Source: an uncultured Candidatus Bathyarchaeia archaeon (GTDB taxonomy: Archaea; Thermoproteota; Bathyarchaeia; TCS64). Taken from it: a DNA stretch of 64,000 bases. The position numbers and the translations under genes are program-made. Shown here piece after piece: positions 18,039 through 49,182 of this stretch. The stretch's first letter is position 1; each line of letters starts with the position of its first letter. Location of the stretch: positions 49-64,048 of the forward strand of contig CAZLHX010000001.1 of NCBI GenBank assembly GCA_964559475.1, written 5' to 3'. A model generated the notes under the pieces. That model had not been told where the DNA came from. It made no database searches and was given only the letters and a program-made list of their open reading frames with translations.

Positions 18039-18878
18039 ATGAAGATTAAGACCATCACCTTTCAAACCAAATACTGGAGACCAGGAACAGATTATGTAAA
18101 TGAAATAATCAAAAAAATTTCTCCTCATCTACAACATGGGGACATTATATCGGTATCAGAAAAAGCAATATCAACTGCTACTGGCAATATAGTAGATGAA
18201 GCTAAAATAAAACCAGGAAAAATGGCAAAACTTCTCGCCAATATATGGACGAGGAAAATGTGGGTGAAATTCTTAGGAAAAATTTGCAGATTAAAAACCC
18301 AAACACTAGAAAATCTAAAAAATTACCCTGATATAGAAGGCTCTCGTCACAAAGAGGTAGCGTTACGTTATGCTGGTCTCTTACAGAGCTTAAGACATTA
18401 TTCAGAAGGGGGTATTGATGCAAGCAACTTGCCTTATTCCTATGTTAGCCTTCCTTTGTATGATTCAGAAAAAATCGCGAAAAAAATCAAAGAGAAAATA
18501 GACAATTCTTGTAAGAAAAAAGTGACTGTCATGATATGCGATGGCGATACCACCCATAGTTGGAGAAATCTGCATCTCGCACCTAGAAAGGTATCTACCC
18601 CAGGTTTGATACATTTCGGAGGATTCTTGACTTTCGTAATAGGAAGAGCCTTAAGGCTAAAAGAAAGACAAACTCCGATAACAATTTCTGGAGAAGGTAT
18701 AAATCCTGACCGTCTTTTATGGCTGGCTCAACTCTTTCACAAACTATCTGGAGGTGGAGCAGGGAGAACTGTTTGGAGTATGGCAGAAAAAATGGAAACC
18801 GAGCTTACTGGGATCACATATGAAATGCTCGAGTCTGTACCTCATTTTCCTATTACAATAATTAGAATACTCAACTGA
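18039..18878 (+). CDS. CofE-like (F420-0:gamma-glutamyl ligase family) protein
   Basis: 279 aa. VSEKAISTATGNIV and EGGIDASNLP resemble the CofE/F420_ligase core. The specific substrate is unknown. Confidence 0.55.
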   Translation: MKIKTITFQTKYWRPGTDYVNEIIKKISPHLQHGDIISVSEKAISTATGNIVDEAKIKPGKMAKLLANIWTRKMWVKFLGKICRLKTQTLENLKNYPDIEGSRHKEVALRYAGLLQSLRHYSEGGIDASNLPYSYVSLPLYDSEKIAKKIKEKIDNSCKKKVTVMICDGDTTHSWRNLHLAPRKVSTPGLIHFGGFLTFVIGRALRLKERQTPITISGEGINPDRLLWLAQLFHKLSGGGAGRTVWSMAEKMETELTGITYEMLESVPHFPITIIRILN

Positions 18879-20439
18879 ATAAGGAGTCATCCTGTACATA
18901 ACTTCTACCCAGTTTTAAGGCGATGAAAGCTTTCTCTAGTTCCTTGCCAAGATAAGCAGCGTGGTCAAATTTGCTTATTAGGTTTTCTCGTATAATTGTT
19001 TGATAGATTTCTCTGGAATTAGACCCCTTAATGATAATGTCGGGTTCTTCTTCCCCTATATTGTAATGTATGGCTGCTATGCTATTGGTCTCCCTATCAA
19101 TAAGGATCTTAAACCATCCTTCGGGGTCCATAATAAACTCGTCCTCTGGATATCCCCTTATAACATCGTAATTTATCTCTAAATCACTATTATAATCTGG
19201 TTCTACTTTGCGTTTCTCTTTTAGAACTAATAGATCTATTCCTAGATCTTTAGGGATTGCCCCTTTCATCTGTGCTAGCCACATCATCTTTGAAGCTGTA
19301 ACAGCCTCTTTTACGCTTCCATATGCTTTGTCACTGTACTCTGGAATATGGAGCATGTTTGCACCTACTTCAGAAGCAAGAGCTGTTAATGAGGCATTTA
19401 CTCCCACAGAGTCAGCGTCTATTAGCTCCGTTACATTTCCCATTCCGAATAGAATGGGCATATCTGAGTATTTTTTCTTGAACATTCTGTAGGAGTCTAG
19501 AGAGTCCATTAATCCAGGGTTTATCAAAGGCTCTACCACGAGATCGGCTATTATTTTCTTTACCCCTCGCTCTTTAGCAAGTACAATATTAGTTTCCATT
19601 TTTCGAACTCTTTGTTCTGGTTTACGAGGTAAATATCCTTCTTTCATATTTGTGGGGAGAAGGACGATCGCTGTTTCCGCTATGCTTGATGTTATTTCAG
19701 ACATGTTTCCTGCATCTAAGCTTAGGATCAAGTCGACATCCAAGTCTAATGCCGTGTTAATCTCATCGGGATCAAGTGAGTCTATACTTATGGGTAGTCC
19801 TGTAACATTTCTAATAGTCTGAAAAATATTTTCTATAGAGTCAGGCATGGGGTTTCCTGCGAGCATCCCCACGTCAATTATATGAGCACCCTTGTTTTCA
19901 TAGTAGATAGCTTTCTGCTCAATCATTTCTAAATCCAGTAGAGGTGCATTAACAATCTCTGCGATAATCCTCATGGGAAACCCATTTCCGACTGGAACAC
20001 GAGCCCTTCCTTTACCAATTATAATTCCTCCCTTAGTCTTTAGGACTCTTTTCCAGTTTTCCTCTACTTTCCTGATCTCGGATAACGCTTTCTCTCTAAT
20101 CTGTTCTCTCAACATCAAATTTGCAGGCTGTTCCTTACTTAGAGAGACCTCTGGGTCAAGAGCTAGGAGAATCTCAGAAGCATGGATGGGTCCCTTGTAC
20201 GTAAGTATTCCTGTCGCCTTCTCTACCACTGTAACGTCCCCGCTGATAGTACCAGGAACTAGTATCATATCATAATTGGGAAGAGTTTGATTCTCTAGAT
20301 TTCTGGCAATCATCTCAGGGGTTAAGAATGCTGCGACAGTAACAGGCATTACAAATACATCTATCTCATGTTCTAAACCTGAAATACCCCTTCGAACCTC
20401 AGCTTCAGCTACTCTTCCGGTAACAACAAGAACCTTCAA
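18871..20439 (-). CDS. Dihydropteroate synthase-related protein of methanopterin biosynthesis (MJ0107-like, with a C-terminal DUF4346-like domain)
   Basis: 522 aa. The central pterin-binding TIM barrel carries AHIIDVG and ISIDS. The length and three-domain layout match the archaeal DHPS-related family. Confidence 0.75.
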   Translation of the reverse strand: MKVLVVTGRVAEAEVRRGISGLEHEIDVFVMPVTVAAFLTPEMIARNLENQTLPNYDMILVPGTISGDVTVVEKATGILTYKGPIHASEILLALDPEVSLSKEQPANLMLREQIREKALSEIRKVEENWKRVLKTKGGIIIGKGRARVPVGNGFPMRIIAEIVNAPLLDLEMIEQKAIYYENKGAHIIDVGMLAGNPMPDSIENIFQTIRNVTGLPISIDSLDPDEINTALDLDVDLILSLDAGNMSEITSSIAETAIVLLPTNMKEGYLPRKPEQRVRKMETNIVLAKERGVKKIIADLVVEPLINPGLMDSLDSYRMFKKKYSDMPILFGMGNVTELIDADSVGVNASLTALASEVGANMLHIPEYSDKAYGSVKEAVTASKMMWLAQMKGAIPKDLGIDLLVLKEKRKVEPDYNSDLEINYDVIRGYPEDEFIMDPEGWFKILIDRETNSIAAIHYNIGEEEPDIIIKGSNSREIYQTIIRENLISKFDHAAYLGKELEKAFIALKLGRSYVQDDSLFS

Positions 20440-20442
20440 TTT

Positions 20443-21420
20443 CTAATCCCCAGTAACTACAACATTTGCTCCAGAGTTTTTAGGTCTAGATACAAATGAA
20501 TAACCTGGTATTCCTTCCTCTTCAAAATAAACTTCTAGTTCAGCAGATAGTTTTTCCGCATGCTTCTGATCATGTGCAAGACCGTAGAAGGCTGGTCCCC
20601 ATGAACTCTGACCTGCACCATAAGCACCATTTTCCAATAAGAAATTAACCCCTTTGTAAATGAATGGATGACCGTATCGTCCTCCCTGCACCTTTACCCA
20701 GTAATCCCCAAATATAGAGTCCATCTTAGTCATGGCACTACCAAAAACCTGGATATCTTCTTCCAGTATTCCAGGTAACATGTTCAGAAGAACTGTGTGG
20801 GAGATCTTCCATACTAGTTTTTTAGGTGGAGGCTCTAAGCTTTTAAACGCGTTATTTTCATTTTTCCCGGCTACTCTTAAATTAATCTCTGGCACACCTA
20901 TTATGAAACGCCATTCTTCAGGAATGTCACATCTAAATAACATTGGTGGGATTACATCGGGTTCATCAGTCTTTCTTCCACCATCTAGAATAAAACCGCC
21001 GTGAAGGAAAAGGTAGGTTCCTATACCTGAGCGTCTACTCCTCTCAAGAATATGCGCTCCCTTTAATAAGTCAATATCTAGCCTGTATAACTTTTTGATG
21101 GCTGAGACGACTGCTAATGCTAGTTGAGTGCCTGAACCAAACCCATAATGTTCTGGTATATCGGATAAAACCTTGAATTTAACGCCACCCTGAATTCCAG
21201 TGTAATTAATTATTTCCTTTGCATTACTGATAACCCGTTCAGATCGATATCCTTCAGCAGCAATTTCATCAGACTTTTCAGCTTCCATTATTATACTAGG
21301 TTTATCTATAGCTACTCCAGCGCTCCCGTGTATTCTACCTGAATCACCCCTAAGATCGATTATCCCAAAGTGGAGCCTCGAAGGAGTAATTACTTTTACC
21401 CTCAATGTTCCCCACTCCAC
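20443..21420 (-). CDS. Beta-ribofuranosylaminobenzene 5'-phosphate (beta-RFAP) synthase, GHMP-kinase fold
   Basis: 325 aa. TPSRLHFGIIDL at the N-terminus and HYGFGSGTQLALA (GHMP motif II-like) match the MJ1427 family. Confidence 0.8.
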   Translation of the reverse strand: MEWGTLRVKVITPSRLHFGIIDLRGDSGRIHGSAGVAIDKPSIIMEAEKSDEIAAEGYRSERVISNAKEIINYTGIQGGVKFKVLSDIPEHYGFGSGTQLALAVVSAIKKLYRLDIDLLKGAHILERSRRSGIGTYLFLHGGFILDGGRKTDEPDVIPPMLFRCDIPEEWRFIIGVPEINLRVAGKNENNAFKSLEPPPKKLVWKISHTVLLNMLPGILEEDIQVFGSAMTKMDSIFGDYWVKVQGGRYGHPFIYKGVNFLLENGAYGAGQSSWGPAFYGLAHDQKHAEKLSAELEVYFEEEGIPGYSFVSRPKNSGANVVVTGD

Positions 21421-22043
21421 ACCTTCAACAGGCCCTCAATCTTATCTACAACTCTCATCTCGGGAGAATCCTCACCTGAAATTCTCTTAATCAGTCTTAT
21501 AGATTCCCAAATTTTTTCCTCTAATAGATCAGCCGTATCATACTTACCCTGTTCCTTATATGCTTTAACTCTAGTAGCATGGATCACAGCCTCAATGGCT
21601 TCCGATGTGCCTCTACTGAATACTCTTGGGTAACTGTGATATATCTTGATATCCTTCACTATATTGATAAAAGAAAAACGATCATCAGATAACTCAGAGC
21701 TTTCAAATTTCTCTAAGGATAAACTAGCCTCAGAATCCTTCAGATCGTGATCCACAAATTTAAAATCATAATTAAATTCATCTTTGAAAGCAGCAACCAG
21801 AAAAATATAGGGATCATTAATAATGTTAACGTATGAGACGTCACTACGTTGAAGGTTCTTATAAGTTCTTGATGACTTAAAGGGTTTGATCTCCATCAAA
21901 GAACCCCTAATCCATGATAATCCCATAGGCGCTGGATTAAGGGATTCATCCTCGTTTTTTGTTACCAGTATGGTTTCCACTATGCAATTCTCCCTAAATC
22001 CTAGGTCAATTATTGTATCGATTATTTGATTTTTCAAAGCCAT
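21402..22043 (-). CDS. DUF447 family protein (FMN-binding split-barrel-like), linked to the H4MPT cluster
   Basis: 213 aa. ETILVTKNEDESLNPAPMG is the characteristic DUF447 N-terminal motif. It overlaps the beta-RFAP synthase start by 19 nt. Confidence 0.6.
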   Translation of the reverse strand: MALKNQIIDTIIDLGFRENCIVETILVTKNEDESLNPAPMGLSWIRGSLMEIKPFKSSRTYKNLQRSDVSYVNIINDPYIFLVAAFKDEFNYDFKFVDHDLKDSEASLSLEKFESSELSDDRFSFINIVKDIKIYHSYPRVFSRGTSEAIEAVIHATRVKAYKEQGKYDTADLLEEKIWESIRLIKRISGEDSPEMRVVDKIEGLLKVWSGEH

Positions 22044-22087: not shown

Positions 22088-23077
22088 CTATTCATCCAAT
22101 AGACGTACAGGAAGAAGATAATCACCCTTTCTTCCCAAAACTAAACGATAGGCTATTTTATTTCCTTCCCAGACTTTCTCCAAAGTTCCTCGAGCTTCAA
22201 TAAGCTCCCCTTTTTTGACTTGCTCAGTAAATTTTCCTCTGTAACTTAATAATTCAATGGGCTCATTATCAGAGGAAATCTCCAGCATATATTTGCAGGG
22301 GGTAAATATTCCTTCACTATCATCTTTTATGGTTTTTCTAATTTTTACAACTTCAATAGGTTCACTCTTATCTGGAATATTTATGGGTTTTATTAGACGA
22401 ATAAAGTAGTCTTTATCCTCTACCCTACCGTGAAGTACTTTGTTTGTCTCAATTTCTAAGAAAAGTTTCAGATCCAGACCAGTATTAGACCATCTAGATT
22501 CTAGAACATTTTTTACCGTCTTTTTAGTATATGGTTTTAACCAATTTGAATCTAATCTAAGTTTCTTTAATGCATCATATACTCTTTTACTTTGTTCAAA
22601 CCCATACACGTTGATGTCTATATCGGAGTCTGGAGTATGCATGTCTATCAATATTGATCCTGTGATTCCAAAGCATTCTAGAGGAACCTCGCTTTCCTCG
22701 TTTAATGCATAAACAATTTTTCTTAAAATCTTGATTGGTTTTTGGTTGGAAGTATCAATTATTTCTTTTAACTTTTCTCTGGGCTTGTATATCTTCTTGA
22801 TATTGCTTATGGGAACTGATTGTGTGGTAATTCCAAGTCTTGGTATATAGGATAGGTAATGAGGATAATTTTTTTCAAGAAATCTTTTGGTTTTAACTAG
22901 GTTGTATACCCGTTTATACCTAGAAGTATTCTTGACTCTATCACCCCCTTTGTCTGGAATGTATCTAAGGACGGATAGAACTTTATCTTCTGGATGAAAC
23001 ATTCCTTTTACAGTGAAATATAATCCCTCAGAGGTTTCGATATAGTCTCCTTCTTGAAAATGGTTCGGGTCAGACAA
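22088..23077 (-). CDS. Pol-beta superfamily nucleotidyltransferase-like protein, paralog 1 (N-terminal domain, NTase core, beta-rich C-terminal domain)
   Basis: 329 aa. The intact NTase signature is GITGSILIDMHTPDSDIDINVYG. It is a clear paralog of 32566..33591, with shared DYIETSEGLYF/DFIETKEGLLF and KKIYKPREKL/KQYYKPKERL. Confidence 0.6.
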   Translation of the reverse strand: MSDPNHFQEGDYIETSEGLYFTVKGMFHPEDKVLSVLRYIPDKGGDRVKNTSRYKRVYNLVKTKRFLEKNYPHYLSYIPRLGITTQSVPISNIKKIYKPREKLKEIIDTSNQKPIKILRKIVYALNEESEVPLECFGITGSILIDMHTPDSDIDINVYGFEQSKRVYDALKKLRLDSNWLKPYTKKTVKNVLESRWSNTGLDLKLFLEIETNKVLHGRVEDKDYFIRLIKPINIPDKSEPIEVVKIRKTIKDDSEGIFTPCKYMLEISSDNEPIELLSYRGKFTEQVKKGELIEARGTLEKVWEGNKIAYRLVLGRKGDYLLPVRLLDE

Positions 23078-23153
23078 GCTGAGTAACTGAAATCTTTCCT
23101 GGTTTAATACGTTTATCCAAAATGTGATATTAATAGTAATATTAAGTTAGATC

Positions 23154-24089
23154 ATGCTGGCAATAGAGGCTGGAGATTATGTAAGTAGATGTCATAGTTT
23201 GGCATCATTACTAGAGGTATCAGCTTATCCTAAACCGGGGAACGTGCATCGAACCAGAGATTCTGAAGATACATTTTTTGAGCATTTCCTCGCAGGAAGT
23301 ATAGCTACAACCCCAGCGATCAGAGACCTTGCAACAAGAGCATACAAAGTAAATGATAGTCATTATGGTGAAATTTTCCTAGGAGAGGCTATTCTCAGAT
23401 CAGTACAAGAAATGATGAAATGGCAAAATGGGGGGAATGTACATCTTGGGATTATTCTACTTCATGCGCCCATAGCAGCAGCTGCGGGAGCCATATATAA
23501 GAAAAAGGGAGTTGAAACAGAACTTCGAAATAAAATAGGTGAAATAATTAGATATTCTCAACCTGAGGACTCGGTAAAGATCTATCAAGCTATAAGACTT
23601 GCAATGACAGCGAGAGTTCTTGGTACCATGCAGGAGATGGACGTCACAGACGTCTCTACAAATGAAAAGATAATTGAAGATAATATAGCTCCTCTAGAGG
23701 TATTTGAACTATGCTCGGAAAGAGATGATATTTGTAGTGAGTGGGTATCCAATTTTGAAATCACTTTTACAGAAGGATATTCTTACCTTTCTAATCTTTT
23801 AAATGATGGATTAAAAATAAATGAGGCGGTTATCAAGACTTTTCTATATATATTATCCAAGCATTCCGATTCTCTTATTATTAGGAAAAGTGGGGAAAAA
23901 GAAGCAAAAAGAATTTCGAGGAAAGCGGAAAAATTGTTGAAAATTTCGGATAAAGGAGAATTTCTTACTGAAATTTGGAAGATGGACGAGGAACTATGGA
24001 GAAGCAAGGGTAAATTAAATCCTGGTACTACTGCTGATCTAGTCTCAGCTGCGATCTTTGTCCTTCTTTTAAGGGGATGGAGACCCTGA
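23154..24089 (+). CDS. CitG/MdcB-like triphosphoribosyl-dephospho-CoA synthase family protein
   Basis: 311 aa. AYPKPGNVHR lies near the N-terminus and NPGTTADL near the C-terminus. Both are CitG-family hallmarks. Confidence 0.75.
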   Translation: MLAIEAGDYVSRCHSLASLLEVSAYPKPGNVHRTRDSEDTFFEHFLAGSIATTPAIRDLATRAYKVNDSHYGEIFLGEAILRSVQEMMKWQNGGNVHLGIILLHAPIAAAAGAIYKKKGVETELRNKIGEIIRYSQPEDSVKIYQAIRLAMTARVLGTMQEMDVTDVSTNEKIIEDNIAPLEVFELCSERDDICSEWVSNFEITFTEGYSYLSNLLNDGLKINEAVIKTFLYILSKHSDSLIIRKSGEKEAKRISRKAEKLLKISDKGEFLTEIWKMDEELWRSKGKLNPGTTADLVSAAIFVLLLRGWRP

Positions 24090-24578
24090 GCCAAAAATCT
24101 CTTCTATCAACTCACTACATTTACTCTGTTTAGTAGCTTGAACATATCTTAGATAATGAGGATACATACTCATCCACTCTTTCACACCTTTATCGGTGAT
24201 ATAGCCTTTGAGTTTCCCATTTTCGGTAACTGCTAGGCTATTGATATCGAATTTTGTCATGATGTCGAATGCTTCCTCGATTGTGTTCCCCATATTAATA
24301 GTTATCACCGGGGTGCAAATCAGATTCTCTACTTTAATCTTATCCCTGGGTAAGTCTGATTCTGCTAGCCATTTTAATACATCAAACATATTGAAACATC
24401 CAACAGGTTCACCGTCTTCCAGGGCAACGATATCTCCGTGATAGTTTTCCTGTACAGTTGTAATGACTTCTACTAAGTTCTGAGTAATTTCAGCGGTTGG
24501 AACAGTTTTATCCATAAGTACGCGGCATGGAAGCTTGCAGAACTCAGGATCTAACACCCGGTTTACCATTGAGATCAA
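24069..24578 (-). CDS. CBS-domain pair protein
   Basis: 169 aa with two CBS-like repeats (VALEDGEPVGCFNMFDVL, AVTENGKLKGYITDKGV). It converges on the CitG-like gene and overlaps it by 21 nt. Confidence 0.7.
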   Translation of the reverse strand: MISMVNRVLDPEFCKLPCRVLMDKTVPTAEITQNLVEVITTVQENYHGDIVALEDGEPVGCFNMFDVLKWLAESDLPRDKIKVENLICTPVITINMGNTIEEAFDIMTKFDINSLAVTENGKLKGYITDKGVKEWMSMYPHYLRYVQATKQSKCSELIEEIFGSGSPSP

Positions 24579-24697: not shown

Positions 24698-25210
24698 ATG
24701 AGTTTTGAGAAAAAGATCCTTTACATCGAGAGTAAAGGTAATGAAAAGATAGCAGATTTGATTCTTGAACGTCTAGAGGAACATGATCTAAATACAGTTG
24801 TTATAGGTAGCGGTAAAGGAAAATCAGCATTAACTATCGCAGATGTGCTGAAAGACAGAGCAAAAATACTCAGTATAACAGAGTTCACATACAGTGACTC
24901 CTTAAAAAAAGATATGAAAAAGAAAAATGTAACACCTCTAGAAAAAGTAGACTTACCAATTCAGGACGAGCGGGAGATGAGGGAAACATTGCTGATGTTT
25001 GGCTCAGGGGTAAAAGCCGCACTGGAAGTTGCACGAATAGCGGTGATTCATGGATTGGAGGATGAAAAATTTATCACAGTAGCAGGAGCGGGACCGGGAC
25101 TTGACACAGCTCTCCTAGTAGATATGAATCACCCTGAAAAAGAGATGATAACAGATCCGAAGAAACAAATGCTCATTAAAGAAGTTATTGCCCTTAAAAG
25201 ATATGAGTAG
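24698..25210 (+). CDS. Hypothetical alpha/beta protein, possibly pyruvate-kinase C-terminal-domain-like
   Basis: 170-aa ORF. The resemblance to standalone PK_C-like proteins is only weak. It is a real gene by coding density. Confidence 0.3.
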   Translation: MSFEKKILYIESKGNEKIADLILERLEEHDLNTVVIGSGKGKSALTIADVLKDRAKILSITEFTYSDSLKKDMKKKNVTPLEKVDLPIQDEREMRETLLMFGSGVKAALEVARIAVIHGLEDEKFITVAGAGPGLDTALLVDMNHPEKEMITDPKKQMLIKEVIALKRYE

Positions 25211-25218
25211 GGAATTAA

Positions 25219-25515
25219 ATGTCAGATAAATTAAGTAAAACTATTTCAGACTCCTTAGAGGAGACGAAGGAACGGCACAAAAAGTATCTCAGAGCAATGA
25301 GCAACCCAATTAGAAGAGATATTATTCGCGCAATCAGAGAAGGATCAAACACAATCGACGAACTCGAAAAACAACTAGACACCGACTCAAAAACACTAAG
25401 ATGGCACATAAAGATACTTGAGGACGGTTACTGTCTAGAAATAAAACTGGTCGATGGCATTGAAAACTTTGTAGTAACAGAAGAAGGCGATGTAGTAGAT
25501 TACATTGAAGGTTAA
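25219..25515 (+). CDS. ArsR/SmtB-like winged-helix transcriptional regulator
   Basis: 98 aa. AMSNPIRRDIIRAIREGSNTIDELEKQLDTDSKTLRWHIKILEDG is a typical ArsR HTH. Confidence 0.65.
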   Translation: MSDKLSKTISDSLEETKERHKKYLRAMSNPIRRDIIRAIREGSNTIDELEKQLDTDSKTLRWHIKILEDGYCLEIKLVDGIENFVVTEEGDVVDYIEG

Positions 25516-25571: not shown

Positions 25572-26522
25572 ATGTTAAGTATAAACAAGTTGTCTTATAA
25601 GATAGTTAAGAAATTAATCGATGCCCCTGAATATTACCGAGTTAATGTTGAGGAACTCTCCTCAGGCGCAACAATCATTGATACTGGTCTTGAAGCCCAT
25701 GGAGGATATGAGGCCGGATTGATGACTACAAAGATAGCAATGGGAGGAGCAGGAACAGCCACACTAGGTTACCATGAATATGATAAATTGAACCTTCCCA
25801 CAGTTGTAATATCCACCGACCACCCAGCAGTATCACTATTTGGAGCTCAGTTAGCAGGATGGAGAATAAAAGCTGGTGATTACCGAGCTGATGGATCGGG
25901 TCCCGCTAGAGCCTTGGCCTTGAAACCCAAAGAAGTGTATGAGAAAATCCAGTATCAAGATGAAGCGGATGTAGCAGTAATCTTACTGGAAACTGAGGAG
26001 AAACCACCAGACGAGGCTGCCTATTATATAGCAGATAGGTGTGGAGTCGAACCCAATAATGTCTACATGGTTCTTACAAACACAACATCCCTTGCAGGGA
26101 TGGTACAGATCTCAGGACGTATAGTGGAGACGGGTTTGTTCAGGTTAGATGTTCTAGGATTAGATCTTAAGAAGGTAAAGTATGGTGCAGGTTATGCGCC
26201 TGTTATGCCTGTTCATGTAGACTCAGGTAAAGCTATGGGTCGTGCTGAAGATGCTTTAACTTACGGAGGAGTAACCAGCTATATCATAGATGAATCAGAG
26301 TATAAACTGGAGGAAATAGCAAATAAAGCACCCTCAACAAACTGTGTAGATTATGGGAAGACGAGTTACGAGATATATAAAGCTGTAGACTTTGATTTTA
26401 CGAAAATTGATCCAGCCCTATTCGCTCCCGCTGCAATTTCAATAACGTGCTCTGAAACTGGAAAAACTTTCACTCGTGGAGAGGTAAATACAGAGATAAT
26501 CAAAAACTCAGCAAAGGAGTAA
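25572..26522 (+). CDS. mch: Methenyl-tetrahydromethanopterin cyclohydrolase
   Basis: 316 aa. The sequence is collinear with Mch (GATIIDTGLEAHGG, HPAVSLFGAQLAGW, DGSGPARALA). Confidence 0.9.
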   Translation: MLSINKLSYKIVKKLIDAPEYYRVNVEELSSGATIIDTGLEAHGGYEAGLMTTKIAMGGAGTATLGYHEYDKLNLPTVVISTDHPAVSLFGAQLAGWRIKAGDYRADGSGPARALALKPKEVYEKIQYQDEADVAVILLETEEKPPDEAAYYIADRCGVEPNNVYMVLTNTTSLAGMVQISGRIVETGLFRLDVLGLDLKKVKYGAGYAPVMPVHVDSGKAMGRAEDALTYGGVTSYIIDESEYKLEEIANKAPSTNCVDYGKTSYEIYKAVDFDFTKIDPALFAPAAISITCSETGKTFTRGEVNTEIIKNSAKE

Positions 26523-26536
26523 ACGGAGGATAATCT

Positions 26537-26932
26537 GTGAAAAAAATTGATGTAACATTAATTTCAGGAAGAACAACACAGCAAGGCGTAGGTCTTGAAG
26601 AGGGAAAAACATCTGAAGCGTATACAAAAAGTGTAGATTATATTGAATTGAACTCATCTGATGCTGAAAAACTTGGTTTAAAAGAAGAATACCTGGTCAA
26701 AGTATCGAATGAAAACGGCTCAGTAGTCCTAAAATGGAAAAAAACAGATGGACTAGACTCTGGGATAGCGTTTATCCCCTACGGTCCTTGGGCTAACCAG
26801 TTATTCGGTTACGAGACTGAGAGCACCGGTATGCCCTGGTTCAAAGGAATACCAGCGCTAATTGAAGGAGAATCCAAAGAAAATATGCTCACTCTACAAG
26901 AAATTGTAGAATCTTTCAGGAGTGGAAAATAG
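26537..26932 (+). CDS. fwdD: Formylmethanofuran dehydrogenase subunit D
   Basis: 131 aa with a molybdopterin-dinucleotide-binding beta-barrel (LISGRTTQQG...). GTG start. The stop overlaps the fwdB start (taGTG). Confidence 0.85.
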   Translation: MKKIDVTLISGRTTQQGVGLEEGKTSEAYTKSVDYIELNSSDAEKLGLKEEYLVKVSNENGSVVLKWKKTDGLDSGIAFIPYGPWANQLFGYETESTGMPWFKGIPALIEGESKENMLTLQEIVESFRSGK

Positions 26933-28209
26933 TGCAAATAGTAACAGATATTGTATGTCCTTTTTGTGGATGCCTTTGTGATGATCTTGAGGCTACAATA
27001 GAAAACAACCATATCTCTAAGATAAAGAACGCTTGTGCAATTTCACGTTCTAAATTCTTAAATCATAGTAAAAACAGGCTGAATTCACCGACAATCGATG
27101 GTGAAAAAGTCTCACTAGAAAAAGCGCTGGATGCAGCTGCTGATATATTATCCACGTCTAGACGTCCCTTGATATATGGTCTGAGTTCTACTGAGTGTGA
27201 AGCCATAGGGAAAGCCGTAGAAATCTCAGAATTAACAGGAGGAGTTATAGATAATACTTCTTCGGTTTGCCACGGTCCAACAATTTTAGCTCTACAACAG
27301 GTAGGCGAATCAAAGACTACTCTTGGGGAAGTCAAAAATCGGAGCGATCTTATTATCTTCTGGGGTAGCAACCCAACTCAAGCTCATCTACGTCATTTGC
27401 TTAGATATTCAGGTATTTCTAAGGGTCTCTATACCTCAGAGGGAAGAAAAAAACGCTTCATTATAGCTGTTGATATACGAGAAACTGCTACCGCAAAGAT
27501 GGCTGACCAGTTCATAAAGATCAAACCTAACAAAGACTTTGAATTATTACAGGCTCTCTCAGCAGCAGTGAGAGGATATGAAGTTCCTGATGTAGCAGGG
27601 GTAAGCAAAGATGAAATTATGGAACTAGCCGATAGAATGAAAAATGCAAAAGTTGGGATAGTTTTCTTCGGACTTGGTCTAACCCAAAGCAAGGGTAGAC
27701 ACATGAATATTGATGCAGCTGTTATGTTGGTTGCAGAGCTAAACCATCACACAAAGTTTCTGTTAACCCCCATGAGAGGTCATTATAACGTTGCGGGTGC
27801 AAACACAGTTACCACATGGCAGACGGGTTATCCGTATGCCGTGGATTTCAGTAGAGGATACCCGAGATACAATCCAGGAGAGTATACCTCGATAGATCTA
27901 TTGGCTAAGGGTGAAGTAGATGCTGCTTTAATAATAGCATCTGATCCAGTCTCAACTTTCCCAGCAAACGTAGTAAGGGAATTAGTCAAGATCCCAGTTA
28001 TTACATTGGATCATAAGATTTCCCCCACCACCATGTTAAGTAAAGTTGCTTTACCAGTAGCCACTGCGGGAATAGAAGGCGAAGGAACAGCTTACAGGAT
28101 GGATGGAGTCCCATTAAGATTGAGTAAATTATTGGAACCGGAAGAGGGAGTAAAAACTGATGCAGAGCTTCTTGATATGATCATTGAGAGAATTGGAGGA
28201 AAAAGATAA
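26932..28209 (+). CDS. fwdB: Formylmethanofuran dehydrogenase subunit B (Cys-type active site)
   Basis: 425 aa. The N-terminal cluster motif is CPFCGCLCDD. The active-site motif is SSVCHGP, with TGC at 27268-27270. Confidence 0.9.
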   Translation: MQIVTDIVCPFCGCLCDDLEATIENNHISKIKNACAISRSKFLNHSKNRLNSPTIDGEKVSLEKALDAAADILSTSRRPLIYGLSSTECEAIGKAVEISELTGGVIDNTSSVCHGPTILALQQVGESKTTLGEVKNRSDLIIFWGSNPTQAHLRHLLRYSGISKGLYTSEGRKKRFIIAVDIRETATAKMADQFIKIKPNKDFELLQALSAAVRGYEVPDVAGVSKDEIMELADRMKNAKVGIVFFGLGLTQSKGRHMNIDAAVMLVAELNHHTKFLLTPMRGHYNVAGANTVTTWQTGYPYAVDFSRGYPRYNPGEYTSIDLLAKGEVDAALIIASDPVSTFPANVVRELVKIPVITLDHKISPTTMLSKVALPVATAGIEGEGTAYRMDGVPLRLSKLLEPEEGVKTDAELLDMIIERIGGKR

Positions 28210-29915
28210 TGTCAGATATTATAATCAAAGGGGGAGTGGTCTTCGATCCCTTAAATAATGTAAACGGAGAGTTAAAAGAAATTTACATAAAAGAGGGAAA
28301 AGTAGCAGAGGAATTTCCAGAAAATAAGGCGAAGGTCATCGACGCTAAAGGTATGACGGTTATGCCTGGAGGAGTAGATCTCCATAGCCACATAGCGGGT
28401 AGTAAGATTAACATCGGGAGATTGATGAGACCCGAAGACCACCGAAAGGACCCTGTTCCAAGAAGCATAAATACAAGATCCGGGGTCGGATACAGCTGTC
28501 CCTCCACATTCGTAACCGGCTACAGGTATGCTCAAATGGGTTACACCACCGTGATGGAGGCAGCAATGCCGCCCCTAGGAGCGAGACATGTACATGAGGA
28601 ATTAAATGATACACCAATTATTGATAAGGCAGCCTTTACCCTGTTTGGGAACAATTACTTCGTATTAAAATACATTAAAGAAGGAGACAAAGATAAACTC
28701 AAAGCATTCATCGCCTGGCTTCTCCGAGCCACCCGCGGCTATGCAGTGAAAATTGTAAACCCTGGAGGGGTAGAACACTGGAAATGGGGACGGAACGTCG
28801 AGGGATTAGATACACCCATAGAGAACTATGAGATAACCCCTAGAGAAGTAATAACAAGTTTAGCTGAATCAAACGAAGAGCTAGGGCTGCCTCACACAAT
28901 ACATCTACACTGTAATAATCTGGGTGTACCTGGCAATTATGAAACAACCATTGAGACAATTGACACAGTGAAAGGTATAAAACCGAAAAAAGGTCGTGAG
29001 GCCAGTGTTCATATTGTCCACTGCCAGTTCAACGCCTTAGATGGAGAAAACTGGATGAATCTCAAATCTGGAGCATCGAAAATTTCAAAATACGTGAACG
29101 GAAAATCCCATGTTACGCTGGATCTGGGTCAGGTTATTTTCACAGACACAACCACAATGACTGGAGATGGACCTTGGCAGTTCAGATTATGGGAACTTAC
29201 AGGAAATAAATGGGTAAACAGCGACGTCGAAATGGAGGCCGGTGCAGGCGTGGTACCCTATACCTTCAAGAAAAACAATCCAGCGAACGCAATCCAGTGG
29301 GCAATAGGCTTGGAACTCGCTTTACTAATAAAAGATCCATGGAAAGTATACATGACTACAGATCACCCCAATGGTGGACCCTTCTACTATTATCCAAAGG
29401 TTATCTCCTGGCTCATGAGCCGTAAATCAAGAACGGAGACTATGCTTGAATCAAATAAAGCTTGTATAAGAAAAACAACACTAGATGGAAGTTACAGAGA
29501 ATACACATTTAATGATATAGCGATCGTGACGAGAGCAGCCACAGCAAAAGTACTTGGACTTGTAAACAAAGGACATTTAGGAATAGGAGCAGACGGGGAC
29601 GTTAGTATTTACAAGATTAACCCAAAAACATGGAGACCAAGTAAATTTAAGGAGCTTGAGAAGGCTTTCAGTAGCGCAGCTTACACAATTAAAAATGGAG
29701 ACATTGTGGTAAAGGATGGTGAAGTTTATTCAACTTCTCTTGGGTCAACCTTCTGGGCAGACGCGGAGATTCCCGAAGGGCTAGAAAGTGAATTAGTCAA
29801 AGAACTTGAGGAGGATTTCAGCAAGTATTATACCGTGAACTTCAGGAATTACCCTGTGGAGGAGGCTTACTTACCGACTCAGATACCTGTTGAAGCTAAG
29901 GGAGGTAAATGGTGA
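28209..29915 (+). CDS. fwdA: Formylmethanofuran dehydrogenase subunit A (amidohydrolase)
   Basis: 568 aa. GGVDLHSHI is the metal motif. Length and context fit. The start overlaps the fwdB stop (taATG). Confidence 0.9.
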   Translation: MSDIIIKGGVVFDPLNNVNGELKEIYIKEGKVAEEFPENKAKVIDAKGMTVMPGGVDLHSHIAGSKINIGRLMRPEDHRKDPVPRSINTRSGVGYSCPSTFVTGYRYAQMGYTTVMEAAMPPLGARHVHEELNDTPIIDKAAFTLFGNNYFVLKYIKEGDKDKLKAFIAWLLRATRGYAVKIVNPGGVEHWKWGRNVEGLDTPIENYEITPREVITSLAESNEELGLPHTIHLHCNNLGVPGNYETTIETIDTVKGIKPKKGREASVHIVHCQFNALDGENWMNLKSGASKISKYVNGKSHVTLDLGQVIFTDTTTMTGDGPWQFRLWELTGNKWVNSDVEMEAGAGVVPYTFKKNNPANAIQWAIGLELALLIKDPWKVYMTTDHPNGGPFYYYPKVISWLMSRKSRTETMLESNKACIRKTTLDGSYREYTFNDIAIVTRAATAKVLGLVNKGHLGIGADGDVSIYKINPKTWRPSKFKELEKAFSSAAYTIKNGDIVVKDGEVYSTSLGSTFWADAEIPEGLESELVKELEEDFSKYYTVNFRNYPVEEAYLPTQIPVEAKGGKW

Positions 29916-30844
29916 TGAGCTTCAAGTATAATGGAGTTAATATTGAAGATACCTTCGCCGAAGGTTTCAGCATGTGGGGAAGCAGAATAATTATCACAGC
30001 TACAAATAGAAAATGGGCGAATACAGCAGCAAACAACATGTGTGGCTTCGCTACAAGCGTCATCGCCTGTGATTGTGAGGCAGGAATAGAAAGAGAGCTT
30101 ACTCCAGAAGAAACACCAGATGGAAGACCGGGGACAGCGGTTATGGTGTTTGGGTTCAGTAGAAGCAAATTATCAGAGCCAATGCTAAACCGTATAGGCC
30201 AATGTGTGCTAACCTGCCCAACAACAGCAATCTATAATGGATTATCAGAGGAAAAAGCCGATGAAATGTTAGATGTAGGAAAAAGTGTACGTTTCTTTGG
30301 TGATGGTTATCAGGTAAAAATGAGGCTGGGAGATGGATATGGGAAACGGCAGAGGTATTGGAGAATACCCGTGATGGAAGGAGAGTTCATGATCGAGGAT
30401 AAATTCGGTGCCAAAAAAGCCGTTGCAGGAGGAAACTTCCTCATAATGGGTGAATCAGAAAAAGCTACATTAGAAGCATCCGAAAAAGCCATAGAGGCAA
30501 TAGATAAAGTTCCTATGGTTATAACCCCCTTCCCCGGTGGTTTATGCAGGAGCGGCAGCAAAGTAGGTTCAAGGTATAGTTTCCTGAGAGCTTCCACCAA
30601 CACCCCCTTTTGTCCTGCTATCAAGAATAGTTATCCAAATAGCAAGATACCTGACGGAGTAAATTCTGTTATTGAGATAGTAATAAACGGGCTTGATGAA
30701 CCCTCGGTGATGAATGCAATGGGTGAGGGAATTAAAGCAGCAACAAGCGTCAAAGGGATAAAATGGATTACAGCTGTAAATTTTGATGGAAAACTAGGGA
30801 AATATCAGATGTCTCTAAAGGATAGTCTTGGAGGTGAATGCTAG
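29909..30844 (+). CDS. ftr: Formylmethanofuran:tetrahydromethanopterin formyltransferase
   Basis: 311 aa. NGVNIEDTFAEGF, PEETPDGRPG, RIGQCVLT, FFGDGYQ, IPVMEGEF and EIVINGL all match Ftr. Confidence 0.93.
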   Translation: MVMSFKYNGVNIEDTFAEGFSMWGSRIIITATNRKWANTAANNMCGFATSVIACDCEAGIERELTPEETPDGRPGTAVMVFGFSRSKLSEPMLNRIGQCVLTCPTTAIYNGLSEEKADEMLDVGKSVRFFGDGYQVKMRLGDGYGKRQRYWRIPVMEGEFMIEDKFGAKKAVAGGNFLIMGESEKATLEASEKAIEAIDKVPMVITPFPGGLCRSGSKVGSRYSFLRASTNTPFCPAIKNSYPNSKIPDGVNSVIEIVINGLDEPSVMNAMGEGIKAATSVKGIKWITAVNFDGKLGKYQMSLKDSLGGEC

Positions 30845-31680
30845 TGAAAACCCTAGTCTTTACACCAAAGAGAATAACAAAGATACCCATCGAAGCAGAA
30901 ATAATCTCACCACCAAGAATTAGCGGAAAAAGTCTAGAAGATGTAAAGGAAATACTAGTCTATCAAGGAAACAAGAGACACAGACTCACTGACTTCTTTA
31001 CAATCGAAGGAGAAGTTGCAGAAAATCCAAGCAAAGTACGCATAGTAATAGATGATGACATTCCTCACGTCAAATACGTTGGAGCTGAAATGAATACAGG
31101 AGAGATACTAATCCGAGGTGACGCGGGAATGCATACAGGGTCTCAAATGGCTGGTGGAAAGATCACAATACAAGGTAATGTTTCTGATTGGGCAGGGGCA
31201 GAGATGAGCGGGGGGTTACTAAAAATCGAAGGAAACGCGGGTCACCAACTTGGTTCAGCTTACAGAGGAAGCAGTGAGGGTATGACGGGCGGAGTTATAA
31301 TAGTTGACGGAAAAGCTGGTTCAGAGGCAGCTGGATTCATGAGAAGAGGCATGTTGGTAATCGGAGAAGATACGGGACCATTTACTGGAGTACATATGAA
31401 TGGAGGAGAAATATTCGTTTTCGGAAAGACAGGGATAAGAGCAGGTGCACAAGCAAGAGGAAACGGGGGGTTCATAGCCTGTCTAGGAGGTATAGAGGAG
31501 GTTCTACCAACCTATAGATATGATACCACCTATAGCCCAGTCATGATGAAGCTATATCTAAAGGAGATGGCTGAAAAACTAGGAATCAAGAAAGCTTCCA
31601 AATTCAAGGATACCCGGTTTATACGATACAGGGGGGACCTCGCAGTAGGAGGCAACTCTGAGATCTTAGTTGCTAAGTGA
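30838..31680 (+). CDS. fwdC: Formylmethanofuran dehydrogenase subunit C
   Basis: 280 aa with tandem G-rich beta-helix repeats (GDAGMHTGSQMAGGKITIQGN, AGAEMSGGLLKIEGNAG). Confidence 0.9.
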   Translation: MLVKTLVFTPKRITKIPIEAEIISPPRISGKSLEDVKEILVYQGNKRHRLTDFFTIEGEVAENPSKVRIVIDDDIPHVKYVGAEMNTGEILIRGDAGMHTGSQMAGGKITIQGNVSDWAGAEMSGGLLKIEGNAGHQLGSAYRGSSEGMTGGVIIVDGKAGSEAAGFMRRGMLVIGEDTGPFTGVHMNGGEIFVFGKTGIRAGAQARGNGGFIACLGGIEEVLPTYRYDTTYSPVMMKLYLKEMAEKLGIKKASKFKDTRFIRYRGDLAVGGNSEILVAK

Positions 31681-32569
31681 TAACACTTTGAAATTCGGGA
31701 TACTATCCTCAGATAGGGAAGAATGGCATGTACTAAGGCTATCTAAAGAGCTTAAAAAAAGAGATAACGAGGTCTACATTTTCCCCGTCGCAAGGTTAGT
31801 ATCCAAGATAGCACTTGAGCCAAGCATATCCATACGTGGTTATCCTGTAGAGGATTATGACGCTGTTATAGTAAGACGTGTACCAGGAGGATCGGTAGAA
31901 CAGGTATTCTACAGAATGGATGTCCTTCACGTGTTAGAGGAATACGGGGTGAAGGTATTCAATCCTCCCCTTAGTATCGAAAAATCAGTTAACAAATACT
32001 ACACGTCAGCCCTCCTAGAGAAACATGGACTAAAATCCCCAAAAACCATAGTAGCTGAAAGCTTCAGAGATGCAATGAAAGGCTTCAAAGAGTTAAAAGA
32101 AGATGTAATAGTCAAACCATTATTTGGATCACTGGGCTCCGGGATGATTAGAGTAACTGATCAAGATATCGCGTACAGAGTTTTCAGAGCCCTGGAATCA
32201 ATAAATAGTGTATTTTATCTTCAAGAATATATTCCACATAAAAATACTGATATAAGAATATTTGTTGTTGGAGGAAGCGCAATATCTGCAATGAAAAGAG
32301 AGGGTGAAAGCTGGAAGACGAATATATCCTCTGGAGGTAAACCCATTCCATATGAGCCCTCAGAGGAAGAGACCAGAGTCAGCATTAAAGCAGCTGAAAT
32401 TTTTAATTTGGAATATACTGGAGTTGACCTTCTCCAATCTGAGGATGGAGAACTATACGTATTAGAAGTAAACAGCACACCAGGGTGGGAGGGGCTCCAA
32501 AAAGTGACGGAAAAAAATATCTCGAATGAAATTATCGAGCATATTCTTTCAAAGTTGAAGAAATCTTGA
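31670..32569 (+). CDS. RimK-type ATP-grasp ligase, MptN-like (tetrahydromethanopterin:alpha-L-glutamate ligase) or CofF-like
   Basis: 299 aa. ATP-grasp motifs are VIVKPLFGSLGSGM, YLQEYI and GVDLLQSEDGELYVLEVNSTPGW. The substrate assignment rests on context only. Confidence 0.7.
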   Translation: MLSDNTLKFGILSSDREEWHVLRLSKELKKRDNEVYIFPVARLVSKIALEPSISIRGYPVEDYDAVIVRRVPGGSVEQVFYRMDVLHVLEEYGVKVFNPPLSIEKSVNKYYTSALLEKHGLKSPKTIVAESFRDAMKGFKELKEDVIVKPLFGSLGSGMIRVTDQDIAYRVFRALESINSVFYLQEYIPHKNTDIRIFVVGGSAISAMKREGESWKTNISSGGKPIPYEPSEEETRVSIKAAEIFNLEYTGVDLLQSEDGELYVLEVNSTPGWEGLQKVTEKNISNEIIEHILSKLKKS

Positions 32570-33591
32570 AACCAAAAGATAGGGACTTTATCGAAACAAA
32601 GGAAGGATTACTGTTCTGTGTGGTCGGTTATCTTCACCCACCAGACAGAGTTACAGCTTACTTGAAATATATTCCATCTATAGACGGAAAATGGAGTAGA
32701 GGGGAGATTCATTATAATCGGACTTTACAGTTTTATCACGTAGCACAAGTCGAGAAGACGTATAATTACTTAGAAAAAATTTATCCAGACTATCTTTTCA
32801 AAGACCCTGTTAGAAATATAACCATCTCAGCAGTCCCAAAAAATAAGATTAAGCAATATTACAAACCTAAAGAGAGATTACAAGAAATCCTCGAAAAACC
32901 AAAGGATATCCTGGAAAAAAGGATATGTGAAATTATTAAAAAAATTAAAAAATACGTAAATATTGAGGGAAACATTGGAGTAACAGGATCTGTTCTTACA
33001 TGTTCTCATAACCCAAATTTCTCAGACTTAGATTTTACTGTTTATGGATTGAAAAATGTACTGGATCTCAAAAAATCGATACTTTCACTAAAATCAGAAG
33101 GAGAAATTAGGTTCTTATCTTCTGAAGAGCTTGAGACTTGGTGCCACGAACGTGGCAAGAAATTTCCTTTATCGGTAGCTGAATTAAAAAGAATTGCTTC
33201 TAAAAGATGGAATTTCGGGTACTATAAAGATACTTACATCTCATTTCACGCTACAAGAAATGATGAAGAAATCCAAGAAAAGTACGGTGATAATATTTAC
33301 ACACAGATAGGAGAAGTGAAAGGTACCGGGAGAGTAAATGATATATCTGAATCTATGTTTAATCCTGCTATTTATGAAATAAGAGACTCAGAACTCTTGG
33401 ATACTAATAGGAAGGTATCAGAGATTATTTCATTTGAAAGCTTATATGGAGGTCTATTTGAGGTTGATGAAAAGATTGAATTTAAGGGAAAACTTGAGAA
33501 AGTAGAAGGAAAAAAGAAATATTATCGTGTAGTTCTAGGTGGGTCAGGTTCCACTGATAGTTTTATGAAATGGTTTACTCCTCAGGATTAG
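32566..33591 (+). CDS. Pol-beta superfamily nucleotidyltransferase-like protein, paralog 2
   Basis: 341 aa. The NTase signature is GVTGSVLTCSHNPNFSDLDFTVYG. The TTG start overlaps the TGA of the ATP-grasp gene (cTTGA). The 3' end overlaps cdhE by 17 nt. Confidence 0.6.
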   Translation: MKPKDRDFIETKEGLLFCVVGYLHPPDRVTAYLKYIPSIDGKWSRGEIHYNRTLQFYHVAQVEKTYNYLEKIYPDYLFKDPVRNITISAVPKNKIKQYYKPKERLQEILEKPKDILEKRICEIIKKIKKYVNIEGNIGVTGSVLTCSHNPNFSDLDFTVYGLKNVLDLKKSILSLKSEGEIRFLSSEELETWCHERGKKFPLSVAELKRIASKRWNFGYYKDTYISFHATRNDEEIQEKYGDNIYTQIGEVKGTGRVNDISESMFNPAIYEIRDSELLDTNRKVSEIISFESLYGGLFEVDEKIEFKGKLEKVEGKKKYYRVVLGGSGSTDSFMKWFTPQD

Positions 33592-34990: not shown

Positions 34991-35001
34991 ACCATTTCCT
35001 C

Positions 35002-41720: not shown

Positions 41721-41721
41721 G

Positions 41722-49143: not shown

Positions 49144-49182
49144 TGTTTATTAAAGACCTTTCATTATGTCTCTTAGATTCAT

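Follow-up and report, generated by a model that had tools for sequence, protein, structure and literature searches.

Tetrahydromethanopterin (H4MPT) is the carrier of one-carbon (C1) units in methanogenesis and anaerobic methane oxidation, and also in the Wood-Ljungdahl pathway of archaea and the oxidation of formaldehyde by bacteria; to our knowledge, several of the enzymes that build the methanopterin side chain have never been identified. In methanopterin an α-ribofuranosyl 5-phosphate is carried on the 5-OH of the ribitol and is esterified to 2-hydroxyglutarate. The closest described enzymes are CitG/MdcB and CitX/MdcG. In the CitG/MdcB reaction (EC 2.4.2.52) the ribose hydroxyl of dephospho-CoA displaces the adenine of ATP to give an α-(1''→2') 5''-triphosphoribosyl product; CitX and MdcG, which have a nucleotidyltransferase (NTase) fold, join the α-phosphate of the triphosphoribosyl compound to a serine of the acyl carrier protein (ACP) with release of pyrophosphate. 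A divergent gene pair encoding a CitG-like protein and an NTase of the Pol-beta type, termed NT-A, is present in a 64,000-nucleotide stretch (the window) of contig CAZLHX010000001.1 from an uncultured Candidatus Bathyarchaeia archaeon; the pair provides the best current candidates for the long-missing side-chain steps of methanopterin synthesis.

A survey of the Methanothermobacter genome left about seven methanopterin enzymes still unidentified (PMC3087415). In methylotrophs the corresponding gene island has the order mch-orf5-orf7-fae (PMC3615186), and the genes that follow mch in Methylomonas DH-1 are annotated as an alpha-L-glutamate ligase and a triphosphoribosyl-dephospho-CoA synthase (PMC11533326). 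This position next to mch confirms the claim of a preliminary description of the window that CitG homologs are linked to H4MPT-dependent C1 transfer in methylotrophs; from the gene order it is inferred that the methylotroph CitG-like gene is orf7. Orf5 of Methylobacterium is the methylofuran glutamate ligase MyfB, and M. extorquens makes dephospho-H4MPT, which is without the phosphate and the hydroxyglutarate (PMC8141765). The CitG-like gene of methylotrophs is thus present where the α-ribosyl unit exists and the phosphodiester does not, which fits ribosylation by the CitG-like enzyme and a separate enzyme for the phosphodiester; it counts on the same side that the matches listed in the searches for NT-A include no methylotroph homolog of it. 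The full-text literature searched assigns no function to the CitG-like gene, nor to an NTase, in the methanopterin pathway, in agreement with the earlier statement that CitG homologs have no settled role in this setting.

The CitG-like protein and NT-A

The pair and the genes on the NT-A strand are arranged as follows.

22088..23077, minus strand: NT-A, a three-domain Pol-beta-type nucleotidyltransferase of 329 aa with a TTG start; first gene of the NT-A-DUF447-beta-RFAP synthase-DHPS-like operon
23078..23153, no strand: divergent, AT-rich intergenic region of 76 bp between the two start codons (sequence inspection)
23154..24089, plus strand: CitG-like protein of 311 aa, PF01874 family (Pfam match and motif blocks)
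21402..22043, minus strand: DUF447 protein with N- and C-terminal domains (DUF447_N, E 7.7e-17)
20443..21420, minus strand: beta-ribofuranosylaminobenzene 5'-phosphate synthase (beta-RFAP synthase; TIGR00144, 200 bits against a cut-off of 113.5)
18871..20439, minus strand: dihydropteroate synthase (DHPS)-like protein (DUF6513, Pterin_bind and PterinBD-DUF4346; TIGR00284, 407 bits against a cut-off of 257)

The list of open reading frames (ORFs) and inspection of the sequence agree exactly with the positions and the divergent spacing reported for the pair in the preliminary description; the 76 bp between the genes presumably contain the promoters of both. The contiguity of the NTase gene with those for DUF447, beta-RFAP synthase and the DHPS-related protein is likewise borne out by the coordinates and the profile matches, with a gap of 44 bp before DUF447, an overlap of 19 bp with beta-RFAP synthase and a gap of 3 bp before the DHPS-like gene. 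Beta-RFAP synthase catalyzes the first committed step of the methanopterin side chain, and enzymes of the DHPS-like type couple the pterin to the arylamine ribosyl phosphate; DUF447 recurs as a partner of CitG-like genes and is also found in methanopterin operons of Methanomethylicia and Asgard archaea.

The CitG-like protein matches PF01874 over its full length (E 7.5e-65; residues 12-303 against positions 2-283 of the 284-position profile), however it remains far below the cut-offs of the equivalog models TIGR03125 for CitG (46.7 bits against 272), TIGR03132 for MdcB (36.1 against 282) and NF002315 (37 against 280), and these alignments cover only the C-terminal ~100 residues. The sequences KPGNVHR (residues 27-33) and NPGTTADL, singled out earlier as CitG/MdcB hallmarks, are both present; they belong to four motif blocks (KPG-x-V, N-x-x-x-G, D-x-x-x-x-R/K-x-G and (N/S)PG-x-(T/S)AD) that are conserved across 60 aligned CitG-like sequences of archaea and recur in E. 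coli CitG, where they read PKPGLVDR, GVNTHKG, GDTNVASRGG and LSPGGSADL. Because all four blocks are retained, the enzyme has plausibly preserved its machinery for transferring the ribosyl group of ATP and has plausibly diverged in the parts that bind the acceptor; judged by these profiles, the window protein is a genuinely divergent member of PF01874 and not a CitG/MdcB equivalog. Its nearest solved structure is that of an Archaeoglobus homolog (PDB 3h9p, E 1.4e-27). No citD, citE, citF or mdc genes were found among the scanned window ORFs or in the annotated neighbourhoods of homologs; with DUF447, beta-RFAP synthase, mch and fwd as its neighbours, and with no citrate-lyase or malonate-decarboxylase context, the acceptor is almost certainly not dephospho-CoA.

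NT-A carries the signature G140-S141-x8-D150-S151-D152-I153-D154. The Pol-beta signature is therefore intact, as had been reported, however the spacing originally given for it, GS-x10-DSDID, should read GS-x8-DSDID (equivalent to GS-x10-DID). The match of NT-A itself to PF01909 (NTP_transf_2) is marginal (21.9 bits against a cut-off of 21, E 2.4e-4, ~45 residues); PF01909 is matched by 20/20 members of the family (best E 2.8e-7) and Polbeta (PF18765) by 15/20, and 43 columns are invariant in 80 homologs, including G140, S141, D152 and D154. The constancy of the PF01909 match and of the motif residues makes the signature more than a chance occurrence. Ten of the invariant residues are Arg or Lys, namely K24, R38, R47, R56, R195, K213, R227, R280, K282 and R311; they are distributed over all three domains and fit a polyanionic substrate. 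The family is well populated: 226 close homologs were found, and a profile search of 1.84 billion representatives returned at least 376 clusters (50% identity) at E≤1e-30. NT-A has no NCBIfam match, neither Pfam nor NCBIfam has a dedicated model for the family or its flanking domains, and no PDB sequence relative was detected with either the single sequence or the 80-sequence profile.

The AlphaFold (AF2) model of NT-A (predicted local distance difference test score, pLDDT, 93.3; predicted template-modelling score, pTM, 0.88) is composed of a small β-barrel at residues ~8-97, the NTase core at ~100-232 and an oligonucleotide/oligosaccharide-binding (OB) fold at ~237-323. A Foldseek search of the PDB with the full model retrieved OB-fold proteins only, namely SSB, RPA and the anticodon domain of lysyl-tRNA synthetase (E ≥ 6e-3). 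When residues 1-236 were predicted again without the OB domain (pLDDT 91.7), the matches were to poly(A) polymerase, ANT(2'')-Ia, TENT2 and the cGAS/DncV-like nucleotidyltransferases (CD-NTases) CdnE and DncV, all of them non-significant (E 0.08-0.5, TM 0.13-0.36). NT-A is an undescribed family inside the Pol-beta superfamily: a three-domain NTase, invisible to Pfam and NCBIfam, that is a marker of methanopterin clusters among Bathyarchaeia and Asgard archaea. Membership of a CBASS-like (cyclic-oligonucleotide-based antiphage signalling) or toxin-antitoxin NTase family was also considered; a PADLOC scan gave marginal, motif-level matches only, and NT-A does not belong to a defence-system family.

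Linkage, paralogs and distribution

Linkage was counted in 80 genome loci (designated by L numbers) that were collected by a search with the NT-A profile. A CitG-like gene lies no more than 8 kb from NT-A in 54/80 loci by tblastn and in 51/80 by ORF clustering, where chance would be expected to place a single-copy gene of a 2-Mb genome within that distance in ~1% of cases. The other neighbours are fwd (~33 loci), beta-RFAP synthase (31), the DHPS-like gene and DUF447 (28 each) and mch (27), with a CofE-like gene in 18-20 loci and also in L088; 68 of the 80 have, within 8 kb, one or more genes linked to H4MPT, methanofuran or cofactors. The CitG-like gene and NT-A occur in at least six arrangements, so that their linkage is not one inherited block.

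Arrangement 1: divergent CitG|NT-A with gaps below 100 bp; ~22 loci, including the window
Arrangement 2: co-directional CitG→NT-A, overlapping or near-abutting; L035 (-3 nt), L043 (+4 nt), L046 (-13 nt)
Arrangement 3: stand-alone CitG→NT-A cassette with a 13-nt gap; L090
Arrangement 4: CitG|membrane protein-NT-A; the Bathyarchaeia clade with NT-D and NT-C, e.g. L036, L048
Arrangement 5: fwd-ftr-mch-RimK-CitG-NT-A-NT-B; L046, L060, and L035 with the same operon up to NT-A
Arrangement 6: CitG / CofE-like / RimK-NT-B-NT-A-ftr-mtd-fwd-mch; L088

Conserved synteny, on which the earlier proposal of a CitG-like/NTase partnership depended, is thus clearly present despite repeated re-arrangement, and it ties the NT-A family to C1-cofactor biosynthesis. 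The operons that end with NT-A in Jordarchaeia, Promethearchaeota and Methanomethylicia consist almost wholly of known or strongly suspected methanopterin genes. Those of Jordarchaeia (L079, 2568-10079) and Promethearchaeota (L089, 3556-10158) contain DUF1464, a DmrX-like flavoprotein, a DHPS-like protein, an MptA-like GTP cyclohydrolase and NT-A, in some cases with NT-B; that of Methanomethylicia (L091, 1801-10005) contains DUF1464, DUF447, beta-RFAP synthase, MptA-like, DmrX-like and DHPS-like proteins and a class I/II aminotransferase, the last of these immediately ahead of the closing NT-A. The uncharacterised DUF1464, which is in all three, is a further candidate pathway gene. The genetic linkage of NT-A with CitG-like and methanopterin genes is both strong and new, and the family has not been described before; NT-A and its paralog NT-B are, with considerable confidence, considered to be enzymes of methanopterin-type cofactor biosynthesis.

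A polytopic membrane protein of ~266 aa is encoded directly upstream of NT-A, and co-directionally, in ~27/80 loci (e.g. L057, 6424-7215). It is found in Bathyarchaeia and Asgard loci, even those without a nearby CitG gene; the family has no Pfam match and no homolog in the window, and it looks like an S component of the energy-coupling factor (ECF) type or another small transporter.

The window contains a further NTase of the family, which closes the fwd-ftr operon and is not mentioned in the preliminary description.

31670..32569, plus strand: RimK-like ATP-grasp ligase (PF08443, E 8.5e-34), penultimate gene of the fwdDBA-ftr-fwdC operon
32566..33591, plus strand: NT-B, NT-A paralog of 341 aa (subfamily B hidden Markov model (HMM), E 1.4e-138)

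The start of NT-B overlaps the end of the RimK-like gene by 4 nt; the RimK-like alpha-L-glutamate ligase family includes MptN and MyfB. NT-B shows the same three-domain layout as NT-A with the motif GVTGS..SDLDFTVYG, is 40% identical to the protein at L079:9042-10079, and has no Pfam match at E≤0.001, its match to PF01909 being only weak. Clustering of 141 sequences (139 from the 80 loci, each 250 aa or longer, and the two copies of the window) gave four subfamilies, A-D, all of which keep G-S...D-x-D; NT-A fits the subfamily A HMM at E 2.8e-125. In Asgard archaea, in Thermofilaceae-like archaea and in several clades of Bathyarchaeia, subfamilies A and B mostly stand in tandem and run in the same direction, and NT-B is directly downstream of NT-A in most other lineages; in the window's clade the two are split, A standing with CitG, DUF447 and beta-RFAP synthase and B with the RimK-like ligase. 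One Bathyarchaeia clade has another tandem pair, of C and D, immediately after NT-A, of which the following are examples.

L036 9173-11079, L048 9014-11232 and L078 14494-15507, strand opposite to NT-A: C/D tandem pair, GS..DxD kept

The pairing of A with B and of C with D hints at heterodimers. In one Bathyarchaeia clade C and D adjoin Cdv/ESCRT genes. A deep-branching NTase at L086 10001-10996 gives near-equal scores on the A and B profiles and may be the undivided ancestral form; it adjoins genes of the isopropylmalate/homocitrate-synthase-like and inositol-monophosphatase families, and FmdE, a B12-binding radical-SAM enzyme and MfnB (4-(hydroxymethyl)-2-furancarboxaldehyde-phosphate (4HFCP) synthase) are within 8 kb of it.

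Among the matches listed, the named members of the NT-A family come only from uncultured archaea of the TACK superphylum (Thaumarchaeota, Aigarchaeota, Crenarchaeota and Korarchaeota) or of Asgard. The TACK names are Bathyarchaeia (including BA1), Methanomethylicia, Nezhaarchaeales, metagenome-assembled genomes (MAGs) of Thermofilaceae/Thermofilum and one Nitrososphaerota MAG; the Asgard names are Thor-, Hod-, Prometheo-, Jord-, Frey- and Sigynarchaeota. The family was not seen, among these matches, outside lineages that carry H4MPT-type genes, a distribution that the earlier proposal called for, and it is likely absent from Euryarchaeota. When the CitG-like sequence of Archaeoglobus, reconstructed from PDB 3h9p, served as the query, the matches listed were from Archaeoglobi only. 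In Archaeoglobus veneficus and Ferroglobus placidus (L082 8256-11464 and L084 9099-12265) DUF447 comes after the CitG-like gene and a divergent UbiA-family gene stands before it; there is in addition an overlapping gene, DAGK/NAD-kinase-like in Ferroglobus and NAD-dependent epimerase-like in A. veneficus. Archaeal-type fwd-ftr-mch-RimK-CitG-NT-A clusters are also carried by bins labelled Caldisericota, Anaerolineales, Patescibacteria, Krumholzibacteriaceae, Desulfaltia and Thermoleophilia (L035, L045, L046 and L060; also L007, L011, L016 and L044). These reflect either contamination of the bins or transfer of the cluster into bacteria, and those with the exact gene order of the window are probably mis-binned.

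Candidate chemistry and competing explanations

It is tentatively proposed, at a confidence somewhat short of probable, that the CitG-like protein and NT-A, probably with NT-B, install the α-ribosyl-5-phosphate and a phosphodiester-linked head group from ATP in TACK and Asgard archaea. The chemistry, a CitG-type α-ribosylation and then a phosphodiester to a hydroxy acid, is plausible, every chemical step being inferred. In the first step the 5-OH of the aminophenyl-ribitol would displace the adenine of ATP with inversion, the CitG-like enzyme yielding an α-glycoside with a 5''-triphosphate. In the second NT-A would act in the manner of CitX/MdcG; a hydroxyl would attack the α-phosphate, pyrophosphate would leave and the phosphodiester would be formed. 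The attacking hydroxyl would be that of 2-hydroxyglutarate in methanopterin, and in lineages with NT-A it could be that of another head group. The reverse order is chemically reasonable too and would give the same product: NT-A would first adenylylate the hydroxy acid, to make an AMP ester from which the adenine is displaced in the CitG-like reaction. The RimK-like and CofE-like ligases would later add glutamates. The most specific form of the scheme, in which the ribose 5-phosphate comes from ATP instead of phosphoribosyl pyrophosphate (PRPP) and the β-barrel-NTase-OB enzymes (NT-A with NT-B, perhaps as a heterodimer) make the phosphodiester of an acidic head group, is rather doubtful as a whole.

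The scheme supplies two clonable candidates and an explicit, falsifiable route across the gaps in the methanopterin side chain, and would explain the unusual α configuration of the ribosyl unit. If its most specific form is true, two of the oldest gaps in the pathway would be filled, and TACK and Asgard archaea would carry out the last step with a family that euryarchaeal methanogens lack, or would make a different head group; should the head group made by the family be specific to these lineages, its genes would mark cofactor diversity in genomes of the lineages closest to eukaryotes.

The likeness of the CitG-like protein to CitG/MdcB, seen in the full-length PF01874 match and the four motif blocks, would extend to the chemistry, an α-glycoside formed from ATP with loss of adenine, and the α configuration common to the CitG/MdcB product and to the ribosyl unit of methanopterin is counted in favour of a CitG-type route; however, in a pairwise comparison it resembles E. 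coli CitG only over the C-terminal third. NT-A resembles CitX/MdcG in its Pol-beta GS...DxD motif and in a gene that is tightly linked to, and sometimes overlaps, one of the CitG family; the 26-nt overlap of citX and citG in E. coli represents the same tight coupling. It differs in that E. coli CitX is a 183 aa protein, whereas NT-A has ~330 aa with the extra N-terminal β-barrel and C-terminal OB fold, that its acceptor would be a small hydroxy acid or other alcohol in place of the serine of ACP, and that its family has four paralogs. Pol-beta small-molecule O-nucleotidyltransferases such as ANT(2'')-Ia share the PF01909/PF18765 matches in the motif region, and transfer of a nucleotidyl group to the hydroxyl of a metabolite is the chemistry that the reverse-order model would require; among the weak Foldseek matches ANT(2'')-Ia gives the most compact superposition (root-mean-square deviation ~4 Å over ~120 columns), at a non-significant E of 0.25-0.5, however it has no counterpart of the flanking β-barrel domains of NT-A and their invariant residues. 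The CofC/CofD system of F420 also forms a phosphodiester to a 2-hydroxy acid through a nucleotide-activated intermediate, after which CofE glutamate ligases act, and a CofE-like gene is present in the cluster; CofC and CofD have other folds, belong to other families and have no sequence relationship with the pair, so the comparison is by analogy only.

Several observations weigh against assigning the ribosyl-phosphodiester steps to the pair. Alignment of the 80-sequence NT-A profile with E. coli CitX gave an hhalign probability of 0.2%, and the Pfam families of CitX (PF03802) and MdcG (PF10620) are matched by 0/20 family members at E≤10; with no detectable similarity, the analogy to CitX/MdcG drawn in the earlier proposal therefore rests on superfamily-level fold and gene order. 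In the predicted structure the NTase core has no significant Foldseek match, and the OB-fold matches, which alone come near significance, would also fit a nucleic-acid substrate. Four paralogs, all with GS..DxD, exceed the need of a single coupling step. Among the matches listed there is no NTase homolog from a methanogen or Archaeoglobus, and the CitG-like/DUF447 pairs of A. veneficus and F. placidus have no NTase within 10 kb. The lack of a Pfam or NCBIfam model for the flanking domains suggests that the family is absent from model methanogens, which make the hydroxyglutarate ester; if hydroxyglutarate-containing methanogens do lack it, NT-A is not the universal hydroxyglutarate-coupling enzyme. 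Furthermore, cell-extract work by White in 1996 reportedly pointed to PRPP as the ribosyl donor and to an ATP-dependent addition of hydroxyglutarate to a 5-phosphate intermediate, which differs from the triphosphate route. The earlier proposal for the pair is thus supported in part, by the linkage with H4MPT and C1 genes and the retention of the CitG motifs.

It is considered unlikely that NT-A and NT-B take part in methanopterin-type cofactor synthesis at a step independent of CitG. The NTase could be a RelA/SpoT-style pyrophosphokinase that stands in for MptE (6-hydroxymethyl-dihydropterin diphosphokinase), or it could nucleotidylate a phosphomonoester or alcohol intermediate that a separate transferase finishes in the CofC/CofD manner. 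The Pol-beta fold also supports pyrophosphoryl transfer, as in the RelA/SpoT family; NT-A comes directly after the MptA-like cyclohydrolase or the DHPS-like enzyme in Asgard and Methanomethylicia operons, 26-29 of the 80 loci have no CitG-like gene within 8 kb, and no MptB, MptD or MptE Pfam families were found in the annotated neighbourhoods or the window. However, neighbourhoods of 20 kb without MptE have no bearing on whole genomes, and MptA, MptB, MptD and MptE were all sought elsewhere in the window without success, a result that speaks neither for nor against a replacement of MptE. The overlapping CitG→NT-A pairs and the stand-alone two-gene cassette point instead to direct partnership, and CitG is the most frequent single association, above any gene of the pterin branch.

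That the family acts on nucleic acid, for example in nucleotidylation or repair of tRNA or RNA 3' ends, and stands among C1 genes without sharing their pathway, is considered highly improbable. The C-terminal OB fold with its best matches to SSB, RPA and the anticodon-binding domain of lysyl-tRNA synthetase would agree with such a role, as would the weak core matches to poly(A) polymerases and TENT2, weak matches of single members to the tRNA_anti-codon and RlaP Pfam models, and the position of paralogs C and D beside Cdv/ESCRT genes; however, all of the structural matches are below significance and OB folds bind small ligands too. In at least five lineages NT-A stands in tight operons of cofactor genes that run in one direction but differ in their order, which would be hard to account for if no function were shared, and NT-B is translationally coupled to a glutamate ligase. 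The canonical function, in which the pair would make 2'-(5''-phosphoribosyl)-3'-dephospho-CoA and load the acyl-carrier protein of citrate lyase or malonate decarboxylase, is scarcely credible: PF01874 membership, the CitG motifs and an adjoining NTase-fold partner recall citX-citG, but the scores are far under the equivalog cut-offs, citD, citE, citF, mdc and ACP genes are missing nearby, NT-A has no CitX/MdcG relation, and the consistent neighbours are methanopterin and C1 genes.

Other genes of the window

The window as a whole is an archaeal H4MPT-dependent Wood-Ljungdahl island, which also has genes for CooC-type ATPases, subunits of carbon monoxide dehydrogenase/acetyl-CoA synthase (CODH/ACS) and proteins like methylenetetrahydrofolate reductase (MTHFR). 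The nearest loci are contigs labelled Candidatus Bathyarchaeia with the gene order of the window; identity to them is 75-81% for Fwd and Mch and only 46-48% for the NTase. The remaining genes around the pair are the following.

18039..18878, plus strand: CofE-like protein of the F420_ligase family (PF01996, E 3.1e-20)
24069..24578, minus strand: CBS-domain protein (Pfam)
24698..25210, plus strand: 170-aa protein with no Pfam or NCBIfam match, kept between the CBS-domain gene and ArsR-mch in 12 related loci
25219..25515, plus strand: ArsR-type regulator (Pfam)
25572..31680, plus strand: mch, fwdD, fwdB, fwdA, ftr and fwdC (MCH, E 1e-109; the other names from ORF translations and conserved gene order)

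Mch, Fwd and Ftr are the H4MPT- and methanofuran-dependent C1 enzymes and thus the users of the cofactor; in L088, which is syntenic with the window, Pfam detects the FTR, Molybdopterin, Amidohydro and GXGXG domains. The CofE-like protein is a possible candidate for the gamma-glutamyl ligase of the cofactor side chain. The CBS-domain, 170-aa and ArsR genes between the CitG-like gene and mch are kept in 11-14 loci of the window's clade.

A complete CODH/ACS set is encoded at 33575..40650 on the minus strand, with two CdhD-family proteins, CdhC, the epsilon subunit and a prismane-type alpha subunit; it is adjoined at 40797..42357 on the plus strand by an MTHFR-like gene and its C-terminal-domain partner (MetF/MetV type). 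The organism seems to use the MTHFR-like enzyme instead of Mer in an otherwise H4MPT-type pathway; a luciferase-like gene of the Mer family is present at 46063..46911. The segment 42354..43534 (minus strand) encodes a Flavoprotein-family protein (PF02441, 181 aa) followed by an FMN reductase; PF02441 is the family of the AfpA/DmrX dihydromethanopterin reductases, and this gene is a possible candidate for the dihydromethanopterin reductase of the cluster. Farther along, at 48721..50643 on the plus strand, is an ordinary gene pair for archease and the RtcB tRNA-splicing ligase, which has no bearing on NT-A or the CitG-like gene.

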